A stretch of DNA of 47,924 nt, from positions 1 to 47,924 of the forward strand of contig CAWVXU010000010.1 of the NCBI GenBank assembly GCA_963934255.1, written 5' to 3'. Made by a program: the position numbers and the translations under genes. This document shows, piece after piece, positions 5,456-36,723 of this stretch; position 1 is the stretch's first letter; each line of letters begins with the position of its first letter. This stretch comes from an uncultured Fibrobacterales bacterium. Lineage in GTDB: Bacteria > Fibrobacterota > Fibrobacteria > Fibrobacterales > CAWVXU01. Under the pieces are notes generated by a model, which had not been told where the DNA came from, did not search any database, and saw nothing but the letters and a program-made list of their open reading frames with translations.

Positions 5456-6831
5456 TGGAAATTTTAGAATTGGAACTCAGTCGACCTGGCCCTCTTAATG
5501 GGGAATTAATACTTCCGCCTGATGAAGAATACTTTTATTATTGCTTATTCATGGCATCATTATCAACCGGAAGTACTGAACTTTTACATTTCCAAACAAC
5601 ACCTCAAATTGATTTGTTGGTTGAATGGTTTCACACTCTAAAAATCACAACTCTAATTGAACCTGAAACCTTAGTAATCATTGGTCAAGGCGCTCAATTT
5701 CGCCCCGATTATCAAGATGTCAGTTTTGAACTTTCTAGGCACACGAGAGTCAATGTTTTGTTTGTTGAATTTTTACGATCTTCTGATTGGCCGCTAGTCC
5801 AACTCAAAGGAACCTCTCTTCATTTAGGACAGCTAAGTGATGAACTTTCAAATTTACAAGGCTATATTCTTGATTCCAAAGAAGGCACTCTAGATATACA
5901 ATTTGAGCAATCAAAAGAATTAAAAAGTGAATACAAATTCAAACAAAGTTCATCAATAGCAAGAGATATTATTTTTCTTCGTTGCCTTTTAGATGAACAT
6001 TCTTGCTTGGTTCAAGAGCCATTTGCAATAAATGATTCATTTATTCAAGTGATGAATTTTTTTGGAATAAAAACAAACATAGACCGGCAAGGTAATCAAG
6101 AATTGAGTGAGTTAGAAAAAAGACTTTCTAGGCTTCGAGGGATTAAGACTGAAAAAAAATCAATCTGCTCAATTGATGGTTTTAAACAAATCAACGCAAA
6201 ACAAATTCGACTCCCAGCTGACCCTGACATTGCAAGTGCCCTCACCGTTCTCGGTTGTTTGATTCCCAAATCATATTTTATTTTGAAGAATGTTTCGGTT
6301 AATCCAAGTCGCTCAGGAATTTTTACTTCATTGAAAAGACTAGGGTTTAAAGTAGATTCGTTAAGGCGGAAAGAGCGTCAAGGTGATGCCATCGCTGATA
6401 TTGAAGTTCAATTTACTCGCAATAGGCTTGCTCGTAAAATTGGTGGTGAGAGTATGCTCAGCAGCACTAGGCAATACCCAATCCTCGCTATTGCAGCATG
6501 CTTTGCTGACGGTGAGTCAATTTTAAGAGATATTCCGCTGGTACATGAGAATCAAATCATGCGTCTACATCATTTGGCTACAAATCTCAAACACACTGGA
6601 GCCGAAATTGGTGAATTTGATGAAGGCATTGTTATTCGAGGCCGTGAAGAATGTGACTCAAATACTTATCAGGCACAAGGCGATGAAATACTCGCACTAG
6701 CACTTTATGTACTTTCAAGAACCACGCATGGGAAATCTCATTTTATGAGCATAGATTTAATCGATAAATATTTCCCTTCATTCATACCATATATTGAACT
6801 GCTTGAAACAACTCAAGCGTCAGAAGACTAG
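5455..6831 (+). CDS. EPSP synthase (AroA)-fold protein with degenerate active site
   Basis: Overall AroA layout (GPLNGELILPPD, LPADP, NVSVNPSRSG, P.LAIAACFADGES.L, GAEIGE..EG..IRG, FPSF) after tyrA with TAGTG overlap; canonical catalytic motifs replaced. Confidence 0.8.
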   Translation: MEILELELSRPGPLNGELILPPDEEYFYYCLFMASLSTGSTELLHFQTTPQIDLLVEWFHTLKITTLIEPETLVIIGQGAQFRPDYQDVSFELSRHTRVNVLFVEFLRSSDWPLVQLKGTSLHLGQLSDELSNLQGYILDSKEGTLDIQFEQSKELKSEYKFKQSSSIARDIIFLRCLLDEHSCLVQEPFAINDSFIQVMNFFGIKTNIDRQGNQELSELEKRLSRLRGIKTEKKSICSIDGFKQINAKQIRLPADPDIASALTVLGCLIPKSYFILKNVSVNPSRSGIFTSLKRLGFKVDSLRRKERQGDAIADIEVQFTRNRLARKIGGESMLSSTRQYPILAIAACFADGESILRDIPLVHENQIMRLHHLATNLKHTGAEIGEFDEGIVIRGREECDSNTYQAQGDEILALALYVLSRTTHGKSHFMSIDLIDKYFPSFIPYIELLETTQASED

Positions 6832-6839
6832 GAGCTTAT

Positions 6840-7727
6840 ATGAAAACGATTTCTGTCCTAACTTATGACAATAATCCAAAGACCTTACAGGTCCTCAGCG
6901 AAATCCAAAAGTGGTCAGTTTCTCACGATGAATTAGAAATTCTAGTACCGAAAAGACTTAGCACTTGGATGGAATTTACAAATGTTACATTTGTAAATGA
7001 TGTCAAACTCAAAGATTGTAATGTACTCATCTCAATCGGTGGGGATGGCACCTTTTTGTCAGCTGCTCGACTAGTCGCACGTATTGAAACTCCTATATTA
7101 GGAGTTCATACTGGTAGTACAGGGTTTTTAACTGACTTTAGTCCCACAAGTTTCCAAGGTGCATTAGACTCAATTATCCAAGGGGACTTTGAACTCAAAT
7201 CTAGGTTAATGTTAGACGTTGGACTTATCGAAGACAATTCAGCAATTGCAAAAGATTACATCATTAATGAACTTCAAATCAAGCCACTTGAACATACCTC
7301 TATGATTGAGTTAGAAGTTAAGATAAACGGATATGTTCTTACAAAATATTGGGCCGACAGTTTATTGATTTCTACTCCCACCGGATCAACAGCTTATAAT
7401 TTAGCTGCGGGTGGACCTATTATTTACCCAACTGCTGAAGCAGTTATACTCAATCCTGTTAATCCACCAAGCTTAACAGTAAGACCGATAGTTGTTCCAG
7501 CCGATGCAACAATATTGATTAAAAATACACAAGGAACTGCGTTTAAAGTCATACTAGATGGTAGAGAAGAACGAATTATCCAAGCCAATCAGTCCTTGAA
7601 AATTCGTCGTTCAAAATTTAACACACAAATTATTCGCTCACCAGAGTATGGTTTTATCGAGGCACTAAAACACAAATTAGGGTGGAGCGGTGACCGCTTT
7701 GTTGCCCCTGGAGATAACAATGCTTAA
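6840..7727 (+). CDS. nadK: NAD(+) kinase
   Basis: GGDGTFL, GFLT, INE, STPTGSTAYNLAAGGP; precedes recN. Confidence 0.96.
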   Translation: MKTISVLTYDNNPKTLQVLSEIQKWSVSHDELEILVPKRLSTWMEFTNVTFVNDVKLKDCNVLISIGGDGTFLSAARLVARIETPILGVHTGSTGFLTDFSPTSFQGALDSIIQGDFELKSRLMLDVGLIEDNSAIAKDYIINELQIKPLEHTSMIELEVKINGYVLTKYWADSLLISTPTGSTAYNLAAGGPIIYPTAEAVILNPVNPPSLTVRPIVVPADATILIKNTQGTAFKVILDGREERIIQANQSLKIRRSKFNTQIIRSPEYGFIEALKHKLGWSGDRFVAPGDNNA

Positions 7728-9420
7728 AACCTTACAAATAGATAATCTCATTTTAATTGAGTCAAGTACCGTTTCATTTGGGCCTGGATTTAATGTTATC
7801 ACAGGTGAAACAGGTGCAGGTAAATCTTTATTTTTAAGTGCACTTAAATTACTTAGTGGGCAAAAGGCCCCATCGAGTTGCATAAGAAAAGGTGCTGACA
7901 AAGCTCGTGTTGAGGCATGTTTTCAAGTTAATTTTAATGAGATACCCAACCTCAAAGAGGTTTTCTTGAATCTAGAGCTTGATTTAGAAGATGAGATTGT
8001 CATTCAAAGAGAAATATTGTCTAGTGGCAAATCACGTGCTCGCGTAAATGGCACTATGATCAACAATAAAGACCTACAACAAATTGGACCTATCTTACTT
8101 CAAATGCATGGTCAGTCTGAACAAATTTTACTTCGAGATACATCTAAACATGGAAAGCTTTTAGATGGACTTTCAGATATTGAAGATGAGCTTGCTTTGT
8201 ATAAAAAAGAGTGGCAATCATACCGGGCTATCCAAAAGAAAATACTTGAACTTGAAGAACAAAAAAATCAATCTGAGACACAACAAGACTTCTTTAGGTT
8301 TCAATTTGATGAACTTAAAAAAGCCGAACTTAAAGAGGGCGAAGATGACACCTTAGAATCCGAACTTACATCTCTCGAAAGTGTTGGCGAACTCAACGAC
8401 CTCAAAAACCAAAGTCTTGGTTTTTTAAGTGAAAGCAACGATTCTATTTTGAGTCAACTCCAGTCTTTTATTAAAATTAGTGAAAATTACAGCCAACAAA
8501 GTCATATCAAAAGTGCCCTAGAGAGTGCTACAGAAGCTCAATCACATGTTGAAGATGCACTCCACTCTATTCGTTCAATGGACATACCTACCGATGTAAG
8601 CCCTTATGAAATTGACAAAAAGAATTCTCGCCTAGCAACATTACAGCGACTCAAAAGAAAATACAATACTGATCTACTCGGGCTAATTGAGTTTTATTCA
8701 GAACGCGAATCCCAACTTAAAAATCTTGACCAATTTGACACCTTACTCACGGACCTTCAGTTTGATGAATCACAATCTTTACAAAAGATATGGACAATTG
8801 CAGAGAAACTACATTCCAAAAGAGTGGATGCAGCTCGCGATTTAGATACTAAAGTGACTCACGCCCTAGGTCATTTAGGTATGGATTCGGCTGAATATAA
8901 AACTCAAATAACTTTGGGGTCAATATATAGGCCCAAAACACTAAACTCTCGCGGTGCTGATGAAATTGAATTTTTAGTCAAGACAAATGCTGGTGGTGAA
9001 TTTCAAAGCCTTAAAAAAGGCATATCAGGGGGGGAGCTCTCTCGTGTGATGCTCGCCCTAAAATCAAGTTTAGCAGACCAAGATAAAACCCCAATACTCC
9101 TTTTTGATGAGGTTGACAGTGGCATATCAGGAGAAGTCGGTCACTCAATCGGTGAATGTATGAAGCAACTCGGAGGGTTTCACCAAATTCTCTGTATTAC
9201 CCACCTTCATCAAGTAGCAGTCCAGGCTCAGCATCAATTAATAGTAGCCAAAAGCCAAAATACCGAAGGAACGCTCACTCAAATTGAAAATCTCACTGAA
9301 GAAACAAGAATACAAGAAATTGCTCGTATGTTGGGCGGCAGTCAAGACCCTAATTGGCTAGAACAAGCAAAAAGGTTACTGAGTTCTTCCACCAATGACA
9401 AAGCAGTTTTCTATAATTAG
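7720..9420 (+). CDS. recN: DNA repair protein RecN
   Basis: TGETGAGKS Walker A, HGQ Q-loop, SGGELSR signature, FDEVDSG, ITHL; start moved to ATG 7720 (GGAG SD). Confidence 0.97.
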   Translation: MLKTLQIDNLILIESSTVSFGPGFNVITGETGAGKSLFLSALKLLSGQKAPSSCIRKGADKARVEACFQVNFNEIPNLKEVFLNLELDLEDEIVIQREILSSGKSRARVNGTMINNKDLQQIGPILLQMHGQSEQILLRDTSKHGKLLDGLSDIEDELALYKKEWQSYRAIQKKILELEEQKNQSETQQDFFRFQFDELKKAELKEGEDDTLESELTSLESVGELNDLKNQSLGFLSESNDSILSQLQSFIKISENYSQQSHIKSALESATEAQSHVEDALHSIRSMDIPTDVSPYEIDKKNSRLATLQRLKRKYNTDLLGLIEFYSERESQLKNLDQFDTLLTDLQFDESQSLQKIWTIAEKLHSKRVDAARDLDTKVTHALGHLGMDSAEYKTQITLGSIYRPKTLNSRGADEIEFLVKTNAGGEFQSLKKGISGGELSRVMLALKSSLADQDKTPILLFDEVDSGISGEVGHSIGECMKQLGGFHQILCITHLHQVAVQAQHQLIVAKSQNTEGTLTQIENLTEETRIQEIARMLGGSQDPNWLEQAKRLLSSSTNDKAVFYN

Positions 9421-9423
9421 GTT

Positions 9424-10590
9424 ATGGAAAAACTGACACACAATACAAATCGCCTTTGGTTAGGTAGAATCCTGAGAGTACTTAGGGTTCTCTTACTTCT
9501 ACCTGTAATCTATTTTATTCTCAATGAACAACCCTGGTCCTCATTTAGCTTACTCATGGGTGTTGCATTTTTAACCTATATAATAGGGTTTCAAGTCAAA
9601 CCGTATGAAATTGAAAAACCATATTATACCCTTTGGACCCGGTTTTTTGAAATGGGGTTTAGTGCCTTAATTTCAACTACTTTACTCTATAAGCAGTGGT
9701 GGAGTATTGATGATGCAGTTCTACCAAAATTCATTTTTAGTGCAACTCTGATTCTTATAGCTAGAATGATAATATATCCATTTTTTGCCATATCACTTAT
9801 TAGGGCTCAAAAAGAGTTACGCTATAGCTCATTTTGGGCCAGATCTGCTCGAGTAGTCATTCTATTATCCTTAGCTCTTTCAACACTGAATTTTGAATAT
9901 TACGTTGACATTAGTCTTGGGATTTTAATCCTCTATTTACTTGCAACTGCCATTGCATTTGTCTACAGATACTACAGAGATCCAGACCATCGCAAACCCC
10001 TCAGTATTGCTTCCCAAATAACAACCTCTCGAATTGTTTTAACGCCTGTTTTTATCCTTGTCTTTTTTTATGACAACGATTTACTTTACCACAATAATCA
10101 TCCCATTTTCAAATGGCTAGCATTGATTATGGTTGTCTCATTTATGGCAACCGATTGGCTTGACGGTTATCTTGCAAGAAAAATGGGCGATGTATCTACA
10201 CTCGGTAAATTCCTTGACCCCTTTTCTGATAAAATTTCAAATATGACAATCTTTTTGTGCTTTATGTCATCAGGGTACGCAAATATTTGGATGGTCGCAT
10301 TAATTTACTTCAGAGAAGCTTCAGTAGAGACTCTTAGGACTCTTGGTGCAACTAAAAATGTCACTATTGCTGCTCGTCCAAGTGGCAAATATAAGACAGC
10401 CATACAAGGTGGTGGCATTCTCATAATTTTAACTGGTGCTCTTGATAGTGTTCAACGACTCATTCCTGGTTTTGATCAAATATGGGAATATTTGCCGCAA
10501 ACTTGTATGACAATTATCACTGTCGTGACACTACTATCAGGTATTGACTATTTCATTTCCAACCGCAATGTTTTGAAACACTACTTATAA
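9424..10590 (+). CDS. pgsA: PgsA-like CDP-alcohol phosphatidyltransferase with an extra N-terminal membrane domain
   Basis: C-half has TDWLDGYLARKMGDVSTLGKFLDPFSDK (DxxDGxxAR...GxxxDxxxD) and GKYKT; about twice normal PgsA length. Confidence 0.85.
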   Translation: MEKLTHNTNRLWLGRILRVLRVLLLLPVIYFILNEQPWSSFSLLMGVAFLTYIIGFQVKPYEIEKPYYTLWTRFFEMGFSALISTTLLYKQWWSIDDAVLPKFIFSATLILIARMIIYPFFAISLIRAQKELRYSSFWARSARVVILLSLALSTLNFEYYVDISLGILILYLLATAIAFVYRYYRDPDHRKPLSIASQITTSRIVLTPVFILVFFYDNDLLYHNNHPIFKWLALIMVVSFMATDWLDGYLARKMGDVSTLGKFLDPFSDKISNMTIFLCFMSSGYANIWMVALIYFREASVETLRTLGATKNVTIAARPSGKYKTAIQGGGILIILTGALDSVQRLIPGFDQIWEYLPQTCMTIITVVTLLSGIDYFISNRNVLKHYL

Positions 10591-10595
10591 GGGGC

Positions 10596-11285
10596 TCAAG
10601 AGTCAAATGACTCACTAAAACTTTTAAATGAGAACCAAGTACGACTAGAGTCTACTTGGTTTTTTATTTGCTCATAACCAAAGCCCCAACAAGCTAGATG
10701 AAAATCCACGTGCACATGAGTTGTGTTGTTGACTTCTTCACAAGCCATCAAATCGGTCAGGGTATCACCTAAATAAACGATATGTTTGAAATTTTGTTCT
10801 CGGCACATATTAAAAATATTTTGAGCCTTAGATAGTCCTGTGGCTCCATGTGATTTAAAGTCAACTAATTTAAATCTATCGGCTTTATTAAGAAATATTT
10901 CAATGTAGCCGGCTTGACAGTTTGATATAATCCCCAATAGATGCTTTTGTGATAGTAGGGCTAAGCCACTATTTATCCCTGAGTATAGTTCACCACCCTC
11001 AACATCTAAAATTTCTGATTCGAATTCTTCTAGATATATACCTAGTTTTTTTCTCGTATCGTAATCATATTCAGGGAATAACTGAAGAAATATATTATCA
11101 AAAGATTTCCCCATTATTGACTGTATTTCTGCATGAGTAATTACACCGCGCCCACAAGAATGTGATTTTCTCCAGCTATCAAGTCCAAGGTTCCATGCTT
11201 TAAGAACAGCGTCGCATGAATCCCAAAGAGTGCCATCTAAATCAAATACGATAGGGATAGTTTTATAGTCTAAAGACGAACTCAT
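10596..11285 (-). CDS. HAD-superfamily hydrolase (phosphatase, Gph-like)
   Basis: FDLDGTLWDS motif I, SNC motif II, K motif III, GDTLTD motif IV; ATGA overlap with upstream gene. Confidence 0.92.
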   Translation of the reverse strand: MSSSLDYKTIPIVFDLDGTLWDSCDAVLKAWNLGLDSWRKSHSCGRGVITHAEIQSIMGKSFDNIFLQLFPEYDYDTRKKLGIYLEEFESEILDVEGGELYSGINSGLALLSQKHLLGIISNCQAGYIEIFLNKADRFKLVDFKSHGATGLSKAQNIFNMCREQNFKHIVYLGDTLTDLMACEEVNNTTHVHVDFHLACWGFGYEQIKNQVDSSRTWFSFKSFSESFDS

Positions 11286-11947
11286 TTGCGCTTTATTACT
11301 GTGGATGCAACTTTATCTTCCAACCCAAAGAGCGTATTATAGAGGTCTAAAAAGTCACCTACCCAGAGTGGGTCAGCTGAACTTAAAATTTTAAATGCTT
11401 CACCAAAATTATAGCGGTTATTGTAGGGTCCAATTCCTTCTATTTGAATATCACTTTGGACAATTGATTTTAAGGCTTCCATATCGCCAATAGCACCAAA
11501 GGATTGATGAATTCTATCAATCACCCAAATACGTAGTTCATTGAGTTCTTCTAACCTCAATTCATCCTGATTTAATTTTTCAGATAATAGTTTGAAGTTA
11601 TAATTTATCTCATCAAATTCAAACCTCGGAATTAAATGTCTAAAATCTTGTAGTCTATCTCGAAGTAATTTGAGTTGACCCCCAAACCACTCGTGGCTCC
11701 AAACATTTGTAAATGGCTCATATGGGCCAATATCAACATTCTCATGATTGGTTTTTTTATGCGTTTCTAACCATTTAACAACTCGAACAAGAATTCGTTC
11801 ACCTAAGCTATCCTGACCGACATCATAAAAATCAAAAGATTTACTCAGCAAAGATTCAACATAAGAAAACTTCCAATATGGAATTTCATTTGTTATTTGA
11901 AAGTCTCGCAGTTTTGATTGCCACTGAAGCTTTTGTGCATATTCCAA
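11282..11947 (-). CDS. DUF2894-like protein (Zorya type III ZorG-like)
   Basis: C-terminal IGPYNNRYNFGEAFKILSSADPLWVGDFLDLYNTLFGLE resembles the DUF2894 GPLNS...SP.Y...F..Y...L..L pattern; directly after the MotB/OmpA gene. Confidence 0.65.
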   Translation of the reverse strand: MEYAQKLQWQSKLRDFQITNEIPYWKFSYVESLLSKSFDFYDVGQDSLGERILVRVVKWLETHKKTNHENVDIGPYEPFTNVWSHEWFGGQLKLLRDRLQDFRHLIPRFEFDEINYNFKLLSEKLNQDELRLEELNELRIWVIDRIHQSFGAIGDMEALKSIVQSDIQIEGIGPYNNRYNFGEAFKILSSADPLWVGDFLDLYNTLFGLEDKVASTVIKRK

Positions 11948-11949
11948 CT

Positions 11950-12639
11950 TTATTGACCTGAAGTAAATGCAAATTTATTGCGTTCAAAAGGAACTCTACG
12001 GATTTCAACTCTGCGATTAATTGCACGATTTTTTTTAGAATCATTAGGAACTTTTGGCTGAAATTCTCCAAACCCCGCAGCAAAAACACGATTTGGTTCA
12101 AAGCCTTTAGCTATCAAACTTTTAACAACATTAGTTGCGCGTTCTGAAGATAATTCCCAGTTTGAGTATGTTTTACTATCCATGGGTACATCATCAGTAA
12201 ATCCGCAAGCCATCACGAGGAAAGTACTATCACCTTGTGCGGCTACTTTTAATGCCTGAGCCACCAACTGCATCACATTTTGACCTGATTGGGTTATTAC
12301 AGCACTGCCATTTGGAAATAACAAGGATTCCTGAATATCGATGCCTGCATCAGTAATTGCAATAAGACCCTCTTCTATCGGTGCCTTCAATTGAGCACCC
12401 ATCATGTTTTGATAATTTTTAATTTTTCTGTCAGCTGTCTCTTTAGCTTCTTTCAAAACTTGGTACTCTTGTTCTTTTCGAGTAAAAGCTTCATTCTTTT
12501 TGATGTACTCTTCTTTAAAGCTTTCCTTGATCGTCCATAAGGCGATAAAGGCAAGTAATATCATTGTCATAACACCAAAGCTAAAGTCAGTAAATACTAG
12601 CCACGGTGCACTTTCTTTAGGGCTTTTATACCACGACAT
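11950..12639 (-). CDS. zorB: MotB/OmpA-family membrane protein (ZorB-like)
   Basis: N-terminal TM with W.VFTD (conserved ion-binding Asp); OmpA domain GFTDDVP, NWELSSERA, AGFGEFQP, NRRVEI. Confidence 0.75.
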   Translation of the reverse strand: MSWYKSPKESAPWLVFTDFSFGVMTMILLAFIALWTIKESFKEEYIKKNEAFTRKEQEYQVLKEAKETADRKIKNYQNMMGAQLKAPIEEGLIAITDAGIDIQESLLFPNGSAVITQSGQNVMQLVAQALKVAAQGDSTFLVMACGFTDDVPMDSKTYSNWELSSERATNVVKSLIAKGFEPNRVFAAGFGEFQPKVPNDSKKNRAINRRVEIRRVPFERNKFAFTSGQ

Positions 12640-12642
12640 TGT

Positions 12643-14322
12643 CTAATTCCCTTGAGATGAAGATGAAGACGATGATTGCGAGAGCACTTGCAATAAAATT
12701 TCCTGAGTGCGGATTGAGTTTTCAACAAGTGACTCAGATGCTTTCTCATGAAAAACTTCAAGCGTTGTTTCTAGCTTTTTATAGAAATCCATTTGGTCAG
12801 AATCTTCATCACCTTCTCGGCTCAAATTCTCAACTAGTAACTCAACACCTTTGTTAAACATCTCAATTGTTGATTGCATCTCAACTTGATTGACTTTCAT
12901 GTACTCAGAAGACTGAGCCACACCATCAGTAATTTGACTTAAACCATTCATCATAGTTCCAAGTTTTTCTTGAACATCTGAACTTAAAGCTGTTGTAGAT
13001 TCCAAACCCATCTTGGCTGTGTCTGCAAGTAATTGAAAATCTTCTGATATTTTCTCCAAACCCTCTTGGTTTAGCTTGGTAATCCCAGCTGACAAATTTT
13101 CACTGAAGCTCTGTAGAGAGTTCATCCATTCTTCACCACGAGACTTAAAGTTTCCTAAGAAACTTTGATGTTTAGATTCAAGTGATTCTAAATTTGCTGT
13201 CATTTTCTGTAATCGTTCAGCATCACTTGATTGAGAATTCTCAAGTTGAGATTGAATTCCAACTGATAAATCTTCAAGTAACTTATTTTGTATTTCCTGA
13301 GCAACATTTAGATGAGCTCCAAGACCAGACATTTGGTTTTCAAGCTTCTCAAAGTATTGTGATTGCTTACTTTGAATATCACCAAAGAAAGATTCTCGAG
13401 CACTAACTACTTGATCAAACTCTTGCTTAAGACCTAAAGAAAACTGATTGAGTAATGCTTCATGGTTTTCAGAAAAACGTTTTGAGCTTAGCTCGATAGA
13501 ATGCTCAATACTTTGAGAAAAAGTTCTCTGGTTTAATTCAGAAGAGCTTAATAACTTTTCGTGTGCATCACCTAAAATGTGTTTCAAAGGCTCATGCAAC
13601 GAATCTTCTACAAGCTGAGGAAAAGAGTTTAATGTTTGAGTGAGTTTATTTAAACTATCTGTAATAGGATTATCACTACCTTGATCTAGAGATGGAAGTA
13701 ATTCAAACTGAGTGTATTCTTCTAAGTCTGCATAAAATTCTAAATAACTTTTTTCTAGAGTCTCTTCATTTTTACGCAGGAAAAACGAAGCTGCTAAACC
13801 ACAAAGAGTCGTTCCAAAAATACCCTGCATATTTGAGAAAATTTGAGGAATAATAGCTTCAATATTTTTGGCAGCATCACCCGATATCACACCAGCCTGG
13901 CCTACGACTTCAGCAAGGCCAATAAATGTCCCCAGCAACCCAAGGAGAACAACAGCATAAGAACCATTTCCTACCTGCTTGGAAGCTTGCCTAGCTCCGA
14001 GTATTTCTCGAAAGACACTCGGTGAAACCATTTTGTTATTTTCAGCTAACTTCAGTACTTGAGATTTGCGTTTGGCAACTTCAGACTTCTCGTTGACTGA
14101 TTCACCAGAATTAGCCAATGATAAAGCTACAATTTCATTATTTAATTCATTTACTCCACCTAAAATTCTTTTCTGATGAAAAGAATAGATACCAGCGATG
14201 ATGACCCATATCACCCATGCATAAAGTGGAAATTGATCACGAAAAAATACTGCACTTGCAATAAGAACTCCGAAGCCCATTAAGGACGCAATATTTAGAG
14301 ATGTCTTTGATTTTTGATTCAT
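12643..14322 (-). CDS. zorA: MotA/ExbB-like membrane protein with long helical cytoplasmic tail (ZorA/DUF802-like)
   Basis: Four hydrophobic segments incl. LLGLLGTFIGL and FGTTLCGLAAS, then about 370 aa S/E/Q/L-rich helical tail; start ATG 14322 with AAGGA SD (track start 14340). Confidence 0.75.
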   Translation of the reverse strand: MNQKSKTSLNIASLMGFGVLIASAVFFRDQFPLYAWVIWVIIAGIYSFHQKRILGGVNELNNEIVALSLANSGESVNEKSEVAKRKSQVLKLAENNKMVSPSVFREILGARQASKQVGNGSYAVVLLGLLGTFIGLAEVVGQAGVISGDAAKNIEAIIPQIFSNMQGIFGTTLCGLAASFFLRKNEETLEKSYLEFYADLEEYTQFELLPSLDQGSDNPITDSLNKLTQTLNSFPQLVEDSLHEPLKHILGDAHEKLLSSSELNQRTFSQSIEHSIELSSKRFSENHEALLNQFSLGLKQEFDQVVSARESFFGDIQSKQSQYFEKLENQMSGLGAHLNVAQEIQNKLLEDLSVGIQSQLENSQSSDAERLQKMTANLESLESKHQSFLGNFKSRGEEWMNSLQSFSENLSAGITKLNQEGLEKISEDFQLLADTAKMGLESTTALSSDVQEKLGTMMNGLSQITDGVAQSSEYMKVNQVEMQSTIEMFNKGVELLVENLSREGDEDSDQMDFYKKLETTLEVFHEKASESLVENSIRTQEILLQVLSQSSSSSSSQGN

Positions 14323-14349
14323 CAATATTTCCTTATTCAATAGAATCGT

Positions 14350-15255
14350 TTAGATTATTTGGTCAAAAAGTTCAATTTGCCCACGAGACCATCCGCGAGT
14401 AAATAAAGTCCATTTTTTACGATACCATTCAATTATCTCTAGGCAAATGCCTAAACAAAAATCCACAAAATCTTCCATGTACGCTCTGAAACCTGAGTTC
14501 CAAATACCTAGGTTATTCCATGAACCACCCAGATTTCGGTAAGCCGCTTGTGGAGAACGATAATGGTGCGAACCAGCCCTCTTAATACCATCTCGAAAAC
14601 GTTTTTCCGCTAATAGCTTGATAGAATCTCTGATTTTACGAAATTCCTGTCCTTCCATATCACGGAGACCAAGCTCCAGAGTTGGGAGTAACCTTGAAAT
14701 AGGGCGCATAGAAACTTCAGATTCACCTCTAATCCTCATTTCTTCATACCACTCCTTACAAATCTTATTTTGAATTTTTAAACAACGACTAGAAGTCGTT
14801 ACAATGAGTTTTTCAGCATCGCCTACCATCAGGTGCATATCATGCAAATAAAAATCTTTTAAATCTTTAGCCTTCGTGCCGACATTAACTTTAAAACCCT
14901 GAGGTTCTTCTAAAAGCCAGCTTCCATTCTCAAGACGTTCGACAAATTCATCAACTTCATAGCGCTGAGCCCACTTCTGGCGAAACTCTAGAAATTGAGT
15001 TTCAACATCGTTTGAAAGTTTTCGAAAATGACCAGAGGACTTTTGATTTAAATCTGATGACTCAGAGACCGTTTCCCTAGGGTGGCTAGGATCTAACTTG
15101 ATTTGATCAAGGTTTTCTTTTAGTAAAATTGTATAGTTTGGATCAAATTCAAGTCCAATTTTTTCAAGCATTTGCAGTCGATGATGTGATGCTTTTAACT
15201 CCACCACACTCCTACCTGTAAATTTTCTAAACGCTCTTCTAAAGGACTCTTGCAA
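14350..15255 (-). CDS. Helical hypothetical protein, DUF3348-like (Zorya type III ZorF-like)
   Basis: First gene of the operon, TTG start with GGAG SD; LAEKRF and W.SGFR.YM.DF segments loosely echo the DUF3348 C-terminus; the call is largely positional. Confidence 0.5.
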   Translation of the reverse strand: MQESFRRAFRKFTGRSVVELKASHHRLQMLEKIGLEFDPNYTILLKENLDQIKLDPSHPRETVSESSDLNQKSSGHFRKLSNDVETQFLEFRQKWAQRYEVDEFVERLENGSWLLEEPQGFKVNVGTKAKDLKDFYLHDMHLMVGDAEKLIVTTSSRCLKIQNKICKEWYEEMRIRGESEVSMRPISRLLPTLELGLRDMEGQEFRKIRDSIKLLAEKRFRDGIKRAGSHHYRSPQAAYRNLGGSWNNLGIWNSGFRAYMEDFVDFCLGICLEIIEWYRKKWTLFTRGWSRGQIELFDQII

Positions 15256-15375: not shown

Positions 15376-16230
15376 ATGACATTTGCTAAAAACAAAAACC
15401 GAATTTTAAAGACTCTGACTCAACGCTTACTCGAAGAAAAAAGTATGAGCGAAATAGCTAAAGCACTTTATGATGAGTTGCGCGAATTGCTGAATATCCA
15501 CCGACTAGGCATTGCTGTGGTTTCTGATGACCGTAAAAGTATTAATTCCCGACTCAATCTTTCTACAACGAAATTGAAGCTGTTCAAGGGATATAAAGTT
15601 CCCTTAGAATCAAGTTCACTAAAATCTGTCATTAATTCAGGTAGATCGCGAATTATCCCTGACCTTACTGCATATCTCAAAGCCAAACCCACCTCCGTAT
15701 CCACTAGGCTTATTATATCTGAAGGCATGAAATCAAGCGTGACTATGCCCCTTATTTCAAACAAGAAACCTATAGGGGTTTTGTTTTTATCTAGCCAGGA
15801 TTTATCCGCGTTTCAAGAAGCTCATATTGATTTTATTGAAGACTTCCTGCCCATTATCGCATTGAGCCTTGAGCGTGGTCTTTTGCAAGAAAAACTAGAA
15901 GAAACTAGCCGAGCATTAAATCTTGCTATTACCGAAAAAGAAGGGCTTTCAGACGCTCTACTTAAATATGGTAAGAAAACCGAAGAGTCATTGGACAAGG
16001 CTGCTGACCCAGCTGAAGAAAGTTTGTTGCAAACCTATCCTTCGCCCTTAAGGTTTGAGCAACCCATGTCTTGGCAAGCATGGGAGCGTGAAATAATTCA
16101 TTACACTTTAACTATTTCAAAAGGGAAAATATATGGCAAAAATGGTGCTGCCGACATCCTTGACCTTGCCCCTACAACTTTGCAATCAAAAATGAAACGA
16201 CTCGGTGTGAGAAAAAATTCTGATGCCTAA
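15376..16230 (+). CDS. GAF domain + Fis-type HTH regulator lacking the sigma54 AAA+ domain
   Basis: GAF (EGMKSSVTMPLI..K.IGVL.L.S...AF), coiled coil, then FhlA-like HTH (GKIYGKNGAADILDLAPTTLQSKMKRLG); no Walker A or GAFTGA. Confidence 0.85.
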   Translation: MTFAKNKNRILKTLTQRLLEEKSMSEIAKALYDELRELLNIHRLGIAVVSDDRKSINSRLNLSTTKLKLFKGYKVPLESSSLKSVINSGRSRIIPDLTAYLKAKPTSVSTRLIISEGMKSSVTMPLISNKKPIGVLFLSSQDLSAFQEAHIDFIEDFLPIIALSLERGLLQEKLEETSRALNLAITEKEGLSDALLKYGKKTEESLDKAADPAEESLLQTYPSPLRFEQPMSWQAWEREIIHYTLTISKGKIYGKNGAADILDLAPTTLQSKMKRLGVRKNSDA

Positions 16231-33832: not shown

Positions 33833-34855
33833 TTGAAAGAAACTATTCAAATACAAGGCGTCACATTGCACCTTAGCCAAAAATTAGACGACAACAGTCA
33901 GTGGATTGGCCAAGCCGACCCTATGAGACAATTACAAGCATGTTGGTCCAAAATTTCAGACGAAGACCTGCCACTCAGCCCTCGAATAATTGGCCCTCCA
34001 GGCTTAGGTAAAACCACACTTGCTACAAGTGCCGCCCAAACCCTCGGTTCAGAAATTTATCTCATGCAATGTACTGCTGACACTCGGCCTGAAGACCTTT
34101 TGATTACACCCGTGCTTGATGCTGGTGGCAGAATTGCTTATCATGCTAGCCCACTATTGAGTGCTGTTATTCGTGGAGGAGTTGCTATTCTTGATGAAGG
34201 TAATCGCATGTCTGAGAAGTCATGGGCATCACTTGCTGGCCTGCTCGATCACAGACGTACAGTCGAGTCAGTCGTTGCTGGAATCAGCCTCAAGGCACAC
34301 CCTGAGTTTCGTTGTGTTATTACAATGAACGATGACTCATCAACTTTTGAAATCCCCGATTATATCATGTCTAGGATACAACCAGCAATTCAAATACCCT
34401 GGCCGACCCGGATAGAAGAACAACAGATTTTAAAGTATAATTTACCCCATGTGAGAGAAGATATTTTAAACCTCGTTATTAACTTTTTACAAAAAGCTCA
34501 CAATCTTGATTTACCTTATTCAATAAGAGATGGAATCAACTTGGCAAGGTATACATCTAAGCTAAACATTCACCTTGAAAATGAAGATCTAGAGGTTTTT
34601 AAGCAAGCATTAAAGCAAATTCTTGGAGAAGAATCTCTTGATTTAGAATCTTTAGCTAAACATCGTCAAGCTGTTCAAACCAAGCTCCCTTCAATGGATT
34701 TAAGTGATTTCTTTTTTGGCGAAGATGATGCAGAAACTCGAAATAAATTTGAATCTGAAGATGATCAAGACGATGATTATGATGAGGGCTATAATGAGTT
34801 TGATGGACCTGAATTACCCAAACCACCCATACCTCCTCAAGCTCCAAGGTTTTAA
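33833..34855 (+). CDS. MoxR-family AAA+ ATPase with acidic/Pro-rich tail
   Basis: GPPGLGKT Walker A, ILDEGNR Walker B, HPEFRCVITMN, SIRD; AGGAGG SD with TTG start. Confidence 0.9.
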   Translation: MKETIQIQGVTLHLSQKLDDNSQWIGQADPMRQLQACWSKISDEDLPLSPRIIGPPGLGKTTLATSAAQTLGSEIYLMQCTADTRPEDLLITPVLDAGGRIAYHASPLLSAVIRGGVAILDEGNRMSEKSWASLAGLLDHRRTVESVVAGISLKAHPEFRCVITMNDDSSTFEIPDYIMSRIQPAIQIPWPTRIEEQQILKYNLPHVREDILNLVINFLQKAHNLDLPYSIRDGINLARYTSKLNIHLENEDLEVFKQALKQILGEESLDLESLAKHRQAVQTKLPSMDLSDFFFGEDDAETRNKFESEDDQDDDYDEGYNEFDGPELPKPPIPPQAPRF

Positions 34856-34869
34856 AAAAGTTTTATAAA

Positions 34870-36723
34870 ATGAATCACCAAAGTCTCCCACTTTATTCCA
34901 ATATTCGTGCCTTCCCGTCGGTTCGTGGCAATGCAGCATGGTCTAAAGCGTTAAGAGAAATATTACTCAAAGAAGATTTTGATTCATACGCTTTAGAGCT
35001 CCCTGAAGGTAGTCAAAGCCTCATACAAATGGGCGTTGAAAAGCTACCCGAACTCAGCTTAGTGTTATTTCAAGAACAAGACGAATTAGCATACATCCCC
35101 ATAGATCCTTGTGACTCGATTATTGAAGTGATAAGACAAGTAGCTTATGATAAAATTGAATTTATTCTACCAGAATTTATTCCACACTTTGAAGAGAGCC
35201 CTTGGCTACCAGACTCAAACGTAATTAAGAGTATTTCAACTCATGAATACCAGGCCCTGTGTACTCCTGTTTTTAGAAAAATAGATGATTATAGTATCAG
35301 TCCCGAGTTAGCCAAAGAGGCTTTATACCAATTTGACCGCCTGAGAGCTATTAGTCAAAAACACGACAATGTACTTTGGGTAGGATATCCACGAACATAT
35401 GATCTTTTACTCAGGTGTTTTGAAAATGTCAGTTTTATCCAAACACTTGAAAAATTAGCCAAACAAAATCAGACACCTCAGTACTCACCCAAATTAACTT
35501 GGCACTTGATCAACTCTGACCAGAGCTATTTTGCCCTAGGTGAACTTCCATTTTATTCAGGAATCATTGAGAAAAACCGACTTGATCCTTTTGCCGAAAT
35601 CCCTGATTTACCAGAACTCATCAAAGAGCTATGGATACAAACTCGTTGGCAATTTTTAGAAGGAGAATCCGAACATCGTAAGGTGCCTACCGCCAAAATT
35701 CAACGTGCCTTGCAATACCTCAGAAACCTCGCTTGGGTAGATGGCCAACTATCACCCGGACTCATGGATATCGTTGAGGCCGCCAAAGGTGTTTTCGGAG
35801 ATACTTTTGCAGCCAAAGTCCTTGAAGCGGCCAAATACTACCCTTTCTTTGACCCAATGAGTGAAGACTCTAAAATTGAACTCAGACCCAATGGTCTTAT
35901 ACATCCTATCTACAAAGAAGATAAAAAGGCCAGAAATATTTTTAGAGACACGACTCTTCAATGGCGTCAAATTGAACTCAGACCTGAACCCCCCAAAGAA
36001 AAAAAGAAAAACTGGCGTTATTCTTGGGACCCATCACAAATGTGCTCTCACCTTCCTGAGGACCACAAGATTGAACAATTCAATCAAGCAGTCAGAAGCG
36101 CAGCGATGAGAACTCTCAATGAAGAGCTCACCAAGTCTGAACCTTTCTCAAGCTCGATGAAAGATGGATTGGACATCAGAGCAACCTTAAGAAACTGGCA
36201 CTCAGGAGATATTTACGTCAAGGAAATCCCTCCCAAACAAGGCGAACTTGATACCGTAGTCATCCTTTTTGATCAACACAATGATGACAAATACCCTCAT
36301 CGGACCGTTTGGTTCGCAGAACACAATGAAGAATCAACACTCACCTTTTATTCTACAGACCCCTTTAAAGACATGATTGGCCCTGGTATCGCTCAAGCCA
36401 AATACGGAGGACTCAGTCTTTTATTCCCACCCAAATGGACACCGGACCCTTTTCAGGACCCAAACATCACGAGTCAATGCACAAATCTTGCAGAAGTCCT
36501 TGTGGTAAATGCATTAAGACATTCTGCCGAGAAAAACATCTGTGTTTTAAGCGCCAAACCACCTACTCTAGCAATGAAAAAATGGGCTCAAAAATTTGAA
36601 AAAAGAATTATCCACCTTCCCCTGAGTCGCTTCAGTTTAGAGACTCTTGAAAGACTTCAAAAATTCCATATTCTCAATGGTAAAGAAATCAGGTCCTATG
36701 CAAGGCGTTTTATTGGTGAATAA
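34870..36723 (+). CDS. Conserved hypothetical MoxR partner protein
   Basis: 617-aa ORF 14 nt after MoxR; ALELP, PIDPCD, DGLDIRATLRNW, AEH.EESTL, GPGI...YGG motifs. Confidence 0.75.
   Translation: MNHQSLPLYSNIRAFPSVRGNAAWSKALREILLKEDFDSYALELPEGSQSLIQMGVEKLPELSLVLFQEQDELAYIPIDPCDSIIEVIRQVAYDKIEFILPEFIPHFEESPWLPDSNVIKSISTHEYQALCTPVFRKIDDYSISPELAKEALYQFDRLRAISQKHDNVLWVGYPRTYDLLLRCFENVSFIQTLEKLAKQNQTPQYSPKLTWHLINSDQSYFALGELPFYSGIIEKNRLDPFAEIPDLPELIKELWIQTRWQFLEGESEHRKVPTAKIQRALQYLRNLAWVDGQLSPGLMDIVEAAKGVFGDTFAAKVLEAAKYYPFFDPMSEDSKIELRPNGLIHPIYKEDKKARNIFRDTTLQWRQIELRPEPPKEKKKNWRYSWDPSQMCSHLPEDHKIEQFNQAVRSAAMRTLNEELTKSEPFSSSMKDGLDIRATLRNWHSGDIYVKEIPPKQGELDTVVILFDQHNDDKYPHRTVWFAEHNEESTLTFYSTDPFKDMIGPGIAQAKYGGLSLLFPPKWTPDPFQDPNITSQCTNLAEVLVVNALRHSAEKNICVLSAKPPTLAMKKWAQKFEKRIIHLPLSRFSLETLERLQKFHILNGKEIRSYARRFIGE

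Follow-up and report, generated by a model that had tools for sequence, protein, structure and literature searches.

What is a set of genes resembling the Zorya type III anti-phage system doing among the housekeeping genes of an uncultured Fibrobacterales bacterium: is it a defense cassette, a new subtype, or a resident system put to another use? The question is raised by four genes, here called ORF1 to ORF4 (Table 1), in a window of 47,924 nt (the whole stretch of DNA analyzed; contig CAWVXU010000010.1). They would encode a ZorF-like soluble protein, a ZorA/ZorB-like ion motor with a long tail, and a ZorG-like protein. The operon is a chromosomally fixed, vertically inherited Zorya III relative of the class Fibrobacteria, not an island, and its motor is dispensable in this class, about a third of which keeps the operon without it.

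The survey covered 296 genomes of the phylum (208 of the class Fibrobacteria and 88 others, with the unpublished genome G253 as a single count). ORF1 is present in 203 of the 208, four of the five misses being in genomes less than 90% complete, and in none of the 88; ORF4 is present in 199 of the 208, with one weak match among the 88. A ZorA profile matches 191 genomes of the class at 1e-5, with 13 weak matches outside it, and misses ten genomes of family f8, of which the two inspected do carry a diverged tail gene. All 61 of the nearest genomes have ORF1, ORF2, and ORF4, and across the class the operon is nearly always single copy.

For 23 genomes, the ORF1+ORF4 tree shares 9 of 10 strong splits (13 of 20 overall) with a LepA+RecA tree, with no strong conflict, and distances for the two sets are correlated (Spearman 0.85). 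Median dN/dS over 11 genome pairs is 0.115 for ORF1, 0.19 for ZorA, 0.065 for ZorB, and 0.18 for ORF4, vs. 0.10 for neighboring genes (one value of 1.05, produced by a wrongly called long frame in a pair of high GC content, is left in the median); motor-less genome pairs give 0.10–0.29, that is, purifying selection. Protein identities to another family of the order are 27–49% for the operon and 26–55% for its neighbors aroA, nadK, recN, and dnaG. An earlier reading of this DNA, made from the sequence only, had described a highly diverged type III variant. The type III affinity stands, but since operon and neighbor identities are alike, the divergence is mere depth of descent. The domesticated system it had offered as an option fits this class-wide, vertical distribution better than a mobile cassette does.

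Orthologues of zorB were called at E ≤1e-55, with one contig-end fragment accepted at 2.5e-36. Of the 143 genomes in the four-gene lineages (families f1, f2, f4, f6, and most of f3), 137 have one; none is present in the 65 genomes of f5, f7, f8, and genera g11 and g12, which include the closed genomes G274, G281, and G241. The best zorB-profile score in these 65 is 4.7e-31 or weaker, a level that generic MotB/OmpA proteins also reach outside the class; 64 of the 65 nevertheless retain ORF1, and 62 retain ORF4. Among 119 loci with both a tail and ORF4, 94 are complete (some being the same genome retrieved twice), 20 have ORF1 without channel helices or zorB, and 5 lie at a contig end; loss of zorB and of the channel helices is never uncoupled. 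Of the zorB-less genomes, 21 in which tail and ORF4 were both readable had their loci inspected, and zorB and the ZorA channel helices are absent from all 21, the stop-to-stop distance from tail to ORF4 being 514–986 nt vs. 1276–1377 nt where zorB is present.

The shortened ZorA of these loci retains its tail tip as well as one or two membrane helices at the N-terminus. In two of five cases tested, the N-terminal helices of f7 align with their counterparts in the full ZorA of its sister family f6 (E 8e-5 and 7e-3). Counted on a two-marker tree, the motor was lost independently at least twice, and likely four times: g11+g12 are nested among four-gene Fibrobacterales (support 92–97), f7 is sister to the four-gene f6 (placed by RecA alone), and f5 and f8 are the remaining lineages. 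The tail varies from about 200 to 600 aa across the class, while its tip is conserved. In genus g11 the motor-less tail is about 230–240 aa, with a middle part made of proline-rich PPPQKIEFPK-type repeats (L143:6270-7043, L144:6757-7473).

By its profile matches, ORF3 is clearly a type III ZorB. It matches the PADLOC ZorB3 model at 6.4e-33 (112 bits) and ZorB1 at 2e-13 (48 bits), Pfam OmpA at 8e-16, and canonical ZorB3 with an hhalign probability (P) of 100; its f6 orthologue matches ZorB3 at 1.7e-50. The transmembrane Asp already noticed in this MotB/OmpA protein is Asp18, invariant in 17 of 17 alignment rows, and the W-x3-TD motif carrying the membrane Asp is found at 100 of 101 loci. ORF2 fits a ZorA-like protein, with the fit resting on its motor helices: two N-terminal membrane helices are followed by two helices of MotA/TolQ type (residues about 126–190; motifs LGLLGTFIGL and GIFGTTLCGL by alignment) and a long helical tail of about 350–370 aa with a conserved tip (about 478–551). 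The channel motifs are intact at all 96 loci checked. PADLOC ZorA3 is the best model (1.6e-6), and hhalign matches its membrane part, residues 29–221, to canonical ZorA3 (P 96.8, E 2e-10). A profile search of the Protein Data Bank (PDB) puts the solved ZorA structures 8qyd (1.6e-12) and 8vvn (3.4e-11) on top, partly via the coiled coil. The tail tip scores 19.0 against the canonical tip, vs. a shuffled maximum of 20.4 (local mode), and so shows no excess. The sequence-only description of a 4-TM (four transmembrane helices) MotA-like protein with a tail of about 370 aa is right as to the tail and MotA-type helices; the number four depends on the alignment, since a hydropathy scan, which finds 4 membrane segments in orthologues such as L135, calls only 2 here.

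The two flanking proteins are harder to place. The naming used here follows the text of PMC8565338, in which ZorF is DUF3348; PADLOC-DB models PDLC00652-658 reverse this, with DUF2894 called ZorF3 and DUF3348 called ZorG3. In single-sequence searches ORF1 and ORF4 have no match in Pfam, PADLOC, or NCBIfam, and PF11445 and PF11828 match nothing in this genome (PF11828 matched nothing in the control genomes either). For 32 ORF1 orthologues there is no Pfam or PADLOC match, and no P-loop family. Against a DUF3348 profile of about 120 sequences, however, ORF1 aligns locally over 200 columns (hhalign score 32.1, E 8.6e-4, P 24%), compared to a mean of 16.0 and maximum of 22.7 for 20 block shuffles. 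In global mode the pair failed to align, and a DUF3348 profile built from 7 canonical sequences gave P 0.2–1.1, the link coming with the deeper profile only. The PADLOC DUF2894 model is matched by 3 of 43 ORF4 orthologues (best 7e-5, under the cut-off), and the Pfam one by 1 of 43 (1e-3). In hhalign, with a DUF2894 profile built from 7 sequences only, ORF4 scores 28.7 locally (best of 20 block shuffles, 17.7) and aligns globally over 196 columns (P 48.5, E 2.8e-5), with probabilities spanning 22–49%; the crossed profile pairs score 18.6 and 20.6. Because of these orthologue-profile matches together with the gene order, ORF1 and ORF4 are likely remote ZorF and ZorG homologues, a relationship below proof. 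The N-terminal halves of both, which had been described as unrecognizable, are not wholly so, since the weak profile alignments extend over them.

The GPYN...DP.W motif described earlier near the end of ORF4 is real: Y175, N176, D192, and W195 do not vary across 43 alignment rows. Among the conserved positions of ORF1 and ORF4 there is no recognizable nuclease or NTPase motif. The ORF1 structure model (pLDDT 81, pTM 0.80) folds as a long bundle of four helices; it most resembles the stalks of dynamin, Mx, and Drp1, followed by IniA, LeoA, and SynDLP (top four rows, Z 8.6–9.3; the match at Z 9.3 has rmsd 4.6 over 179 residues). This likeness is a lead only. Fold searches with ORF4 returned generic three-helix bundles only, and Atlas matches were nameless or below threshold. 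Homologue searches yielded 83 proteins with the ORF1 profile and 3 with the ORF4 profile, the named ones all from Fibrobacterota; these searches, which are word-limited, gave no bridge to other phyla, and no ORF1 relatives were found in viral contigs. A metagenome scan gave 80 close loci. The control genome of Corynebacterium glutamicum has a Pfam DUF2894 match above cut-off, possibly an orphan ZorG-like gene outside the diderm proteobacteria; DUF3348 was found in no control.

ORF1 and ORF4 are predicted to bind as a heterodimer. The complex model scores 0.85 in three runs vs. 0.00 for the best of 3 controls, with at least 80% contact agreement between runs and a partner pLDDT of 71; in calibration, 116 of 157 solved pairs attained the score mark, as did 2 of 215 mismatched ones, rates that are only rough with custom alignments. 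In the predicted interface, ORF4 174–217 (the GPYN...DP.W..DF..LY segment) packs on ORF1 20–49, 189–218, and 270–294. The ORF4 interface columns are better conserved than the rest (0.52 vs. 0.36, p 2.5e-5). A comparison with solved structures turned up no complex resembling the model.

In G241, a closed genome of 1.6 Mb, ORF1 and ORF4 are apparently fused in one gene. Lying between trpS and a His-biosynthesis gene, this encodes 419 aa (L207:7211-8467): a full-length ORF1 followed by 139 residues which score 17.1 bits against the ORF4 profile (maximum 9.4 in 955 reported shuffles) and retain LP..E, YN, and D.IW elements. Neither a tail nor a zorB orthologue, nor any membrane part of the system, was found in this genome.

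The closest known relative is Zorya type III. Shared are the gene order zorF-zorA-zorB-zorG (zorA3 being DUF802; Payne et al. 2021, PMC8565338; order as defined in the methods of PMC11946911), which is also annotated in loci of Ralstonia, Caballeronia, and Aquabacterium, ZorB3 as best match with its membrane Asp, a four-helix ZorA membrane part, and a long tail; both flanking proteins are weakly similar over their full length, and neither system has a nuclease or helicase. The type III affinity proposed from the sequence is upheld by the ZorB3 and ZorA3 comparisons, by the gene order, and by flanking-protein matches that exceed shuffled controls at low probability. The operon differs in that ORF1 and ORF4 fall below all curated cut-offs, the tail is 350–370 aa rather than about 500–800 aa (seven canonical copies), its tip has no significant similarity to the canonical one, and the genes are class-wide core genes that also occur as three-gene sets without the motor and, apparently, as an F-G fusion. 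Zorya I/II ZorA5B2 (8qyd, 8vvn) shares the MotA-like channel helices and Asp-bearing ZorB helix, as well as a peptidoglycan-binding domain and a cytoplasmic tail as likely recruiting arm (PMC11946911, PMC11890865); scores to it are weaker, and its motor is described there as essential, whereas here it is lost in several lineages. For the ZorC/ZorD/ZorE nuclease-helicase partners, ORF1, ORF4, and neighboring genes gave no match in Pfam or PADLOC. With dynamin/Mx stalks and bacterial dynamin-like proteins (4x0r, 5a3f, 6j72, 4aur), ORF1 would share the stalk bundle to which its model aligns; unlike them it has no GTPase domain, and the match may be just a common helical arrangement.

The explanation favored here, held a little short of an even chance, is that of a vertically fixed Zorya III-family operon with a membrane-tethered ORF1-ORF4 core that answers envelope damage and a motor that is a dispensable trigger. 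Type I Zorya is reported to form a 5:2 complex with proton-driven rotation and recruitment requiring Asp26 and the tail tip (PMC11946911). By analogy, a ZorA5B2-type complex would anchor to peptidoglycan upon envelope disturbance, protons passing over Asp18 of ORF3 would drive the motor, and the ZorA tail tip would gather the ORF1-ORF4 pair at the inner membrane. The pair is the likely output and the motor the likely trigger, because tail tip and pair persist where the motor is gone; in motor-less forms the modeled pair would stay tethered through the shortened ZorA tail. As the weakest step, ORF1-ORF4 might act as a scaffold stabilizing or remodeling stressed membrane, useful daily, with phage resistance as a side effect; the lack of a recognizable catalytic motif and the four-helix bundle best matching dynamin/Mx stalks suggest such a role. 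In Bacillus subtilis, DynA combines membrane surveillance and phage resistance in one protein (PMC8844932), and so the two can be one function. OmpA/MotB proteins are listed in the F. succinogenes envelope proteome, as given in PMC4619616. A bolder form of the favored explanation is doubtful: that what is ancient in Zorya III is a ZorF-ZorG scaffold, tethered to the inner membrane and guarding it, rather than an anti-phage rotary motor; ZorF would resemble a dynamin stalk lacking the GTPase. Fibrobacteria would then have kept this scaffold in their core gene set and, shedding the motor up to four times, left a series of four genes, three genes, and one fused gene.

Several observations weigh against the membrane-scaffold explanation. 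The DUF3348 and DUF2894 probabilities are all below 50%. For the dynamin likeness, the Z of 9.3 is below the roughly 13 asked by the tool for helical bundles, Foldseek of ORF1 gave nothing at E ≤0.001, Atlas features point to dynamin-like proteins with scores below 0.9, and there is no sequence-profile link from ORF1 to dynamins. The ORF1 interface columns show no significant excess conservation (p 0.16). A whole-genome search of G241 with the ORF4 profile found no match, and the G241 protein keeps 19 of 36 conserved ORF1 residues; with about half lost, it may be in decay. Since interface (4 of 8 kept) and non-interface (15 of 28) losses are alike, it maps no tail-binding site. Finally, a Stenotrophomonas canonical type III system reduced plaquing in E. 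coli (PMC8565338), so that a defense role is documented for the family.

That documented role is the starting point for the main competing account, somewhat unlikely on balance, in which a Zorya type III system dedicated to phage defense became fixed in the class. The motor would sense phage injection and the tail would recruit an ORF1-ORF4 effector; on the same estimate, the motor-less forms would be simplified membrane-tethered versions of that defense. The four genes do correspond, in their order, to zorF-A-B-G, canonical type III made E. coli resistant to one or more of five phages (PMC8565338), and zorF3/zorG3 transcripts are reported to rise with phage in S. maltophilia (10.64898/2026.01.02.697320). 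Fixation is also compatible with defense, as canonical type III recurs in Ralstonia megaplasmids (a raw count of 135 records). However, a near-universal, single-copy, vertical operon under selection like that of its housekeeping neighbors, with no defense or mobility context, is not what this account would predict, and type I defense requires rotary function and every gene (PMC11946911), yet here the motor has repeatedly been lost.

A housekeeping landmark or spacer, in which an anchored coiled coil holds ORF1-ORF4 at a fixed distance from the membrane and the wall anchor only pins it in place, with roles in cell division, polarity, or chromosome anchoring, would accommodate the variable tail with its conserved tip, the anchor helices retained upon channel loss, the remnant persisting in the reduced G241 genome, and the motor-less f7 loci adjoining holA and the genes of a KaiC-like ATPase and a Ser/Thr kinase. 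It is nonetheless improbable: the system is not in the 88 other genomes of the phylum, neighbors vary by family with no division genes seen, and every lineage with a motor preserves the Asp of ZorB and the channel motifs of ZorA, which argues for ion flow beyond anchoring alone. Flagellar MotAB and the ExbBD/TolQR motors are 5:2 complexes with channel helix motifs and an essential Asp. ORF2 and ORF3 share the motifs and the Asp, and ORF3 scores 111 and 106 bits with flagellar MotD/MotB models, on par with ZorB3 although below all MotB model cut-offs; in f3 and f4, two exported genes lie upstream of the operon. The stator reading (flagellar motion, gliding, or transport of Ton/Tol type) is nevertheless largely refuted and very improbable. 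Contig C3 of this genome carries a separate MotA/MotB-type pair, the genome has eight further genes of the MotA/ExbB family, ORF2 is missing from its nine PF01618 matches, the tail is long, cytoplasmic, and Zorya-like, the partners are cytoplasmic DUF3348/DUF2894 relatives, and in a third of the class the operon persists with no motor. Besides the C3 pair, the genome has another MotA/ExbB + OmpA gene pair at G000:C16:7881-8999.

In the literature searched, no description was found of the Fibrobacteria system, of type III forms without a motor, or of an F-G fusion like the apparent one seen here; supplements may list Fibrobacterota hosts. Type III is the least understood Zorya type. It has no known effector activity, and the authors who discovered it suggested that ZorF and ZorG regulate ZorAB (PMC8565338). 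The natural deletions reverse this picture, because partners and tail tip stay while the motor goes; the series, if true, shows what the motor adds, and lets one ask whether rotation is needed. It also comes with a named predicted interface, the ORF4 GPYN...DP.W segment on ORF1 W277/K281/R287/G288. More broadly, this is a class-wide marker system in fiber-degrading gut and environmental bacteria that current defense-system models miss, and if its role is everyday envelope care, tallies of type III as phage defense need re-reading.

Table 1. Genes of the operon and its downstream neighbor in the window.
Feature	Position	Strand	Length	Pfam match
ORF1, ZorF-like (remote DUF3348), soluble four-long-helix protein	14350-15255	minus	301 aa	
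ORF2, ZorA-like: membrane/channel helices and long helical tail	12643-14340	minus	565 aa	
ORF3, ZorB3-like: Asp18-bearing membrane helix, coiled neck, and peptidoglycan-binding domain of OmpA type	11950-12639	minus	229 aa	OmpA 8e-16
ORF4, ZorG-like (remote DUF2894) helical protein	11282-11947	minus	221 aa	
HAD-family hydrolase	10596-11285	minus		HAD_2 4.7e-17

The four minus-strand genes are as tightly packed as first described (gaps of 9, 3, and 2 nt from ORF1 to ORF4); a HAD hydrolase gene in the same span, overlapping the ORF4 stop by 4 nt, had gone unmentioned. It is found in 3 of 31 genomes, this one counted, and in family f2 ORF4 adjoins pgsA directly with no HAD gene between; it is therefore likely a local passenger outside the system, though probably co-transcribed here. 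Pfam annotation of 40 window ORFs gives a housekeeping neighborhood (lepA, aro genes, nadK, recN, pgsA, mgtE, dnaG, recA) without mobility genes, and PADLOC matches in 18 window ORFs other than ORF2 and ORF3 are housekeeping homologues (RecN, DnaG) or weak, in agreement with the earlier statement that no mobility or other defense genes lie nearby. The host is, as was suspected, non-proteobacterial: the closest zorB relatives are from Fibrobacterales/Fibrobacter. GC content is 36.7% in the operon, 37.9% in the window, and 38.6% in the genome, and the flanks pgsA-recN-nadK-aroA and response regulator-dnaG-recA are common to this genome and family f2. Promoter and terminator matches at the operon show no excess over chance. 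In a Fibrobacter intestinalis-like locus the operon is covered by RNA-library contigs, which may stem from DNA in the libraries.

Some further features of the surroundings are noted here. A divergent GAF + Fis-type HTH regulator without an AAA domain (15376-16230) lies 120 nt upstream of ORF1; none is found beside the operon in 20 relatives' loci. In families f3 and f4, genes for a beta-helix protein and a likely lipoprotein lie upstream of the operon in 14–15 of 20 loci (L037:7283-8814, L022:10977-12457); they do not adjoin it in this window. In f5, f6, and f7 the operon often has a Ser/Thr kinase-TPR gene on one side and, on the other, a holA-KaiC-like ATPase pair in convergent orientation (L136:482-2242 and 5856-9603; also L135, L137, L139, and L140). 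The product of pgsA (9424-10590) is extended at its N-terminus by a membrane region of about 190 aa, as in family f2. A MoxR-like AAA ATPase gene is followed by a 617-aa gene without a Pfam or PADLOC family (33833-36723), and a Lys/Ala-rich repeat protein resembling histone H1 (Pfam HC2, below cut-off) is encoded at 14-829.

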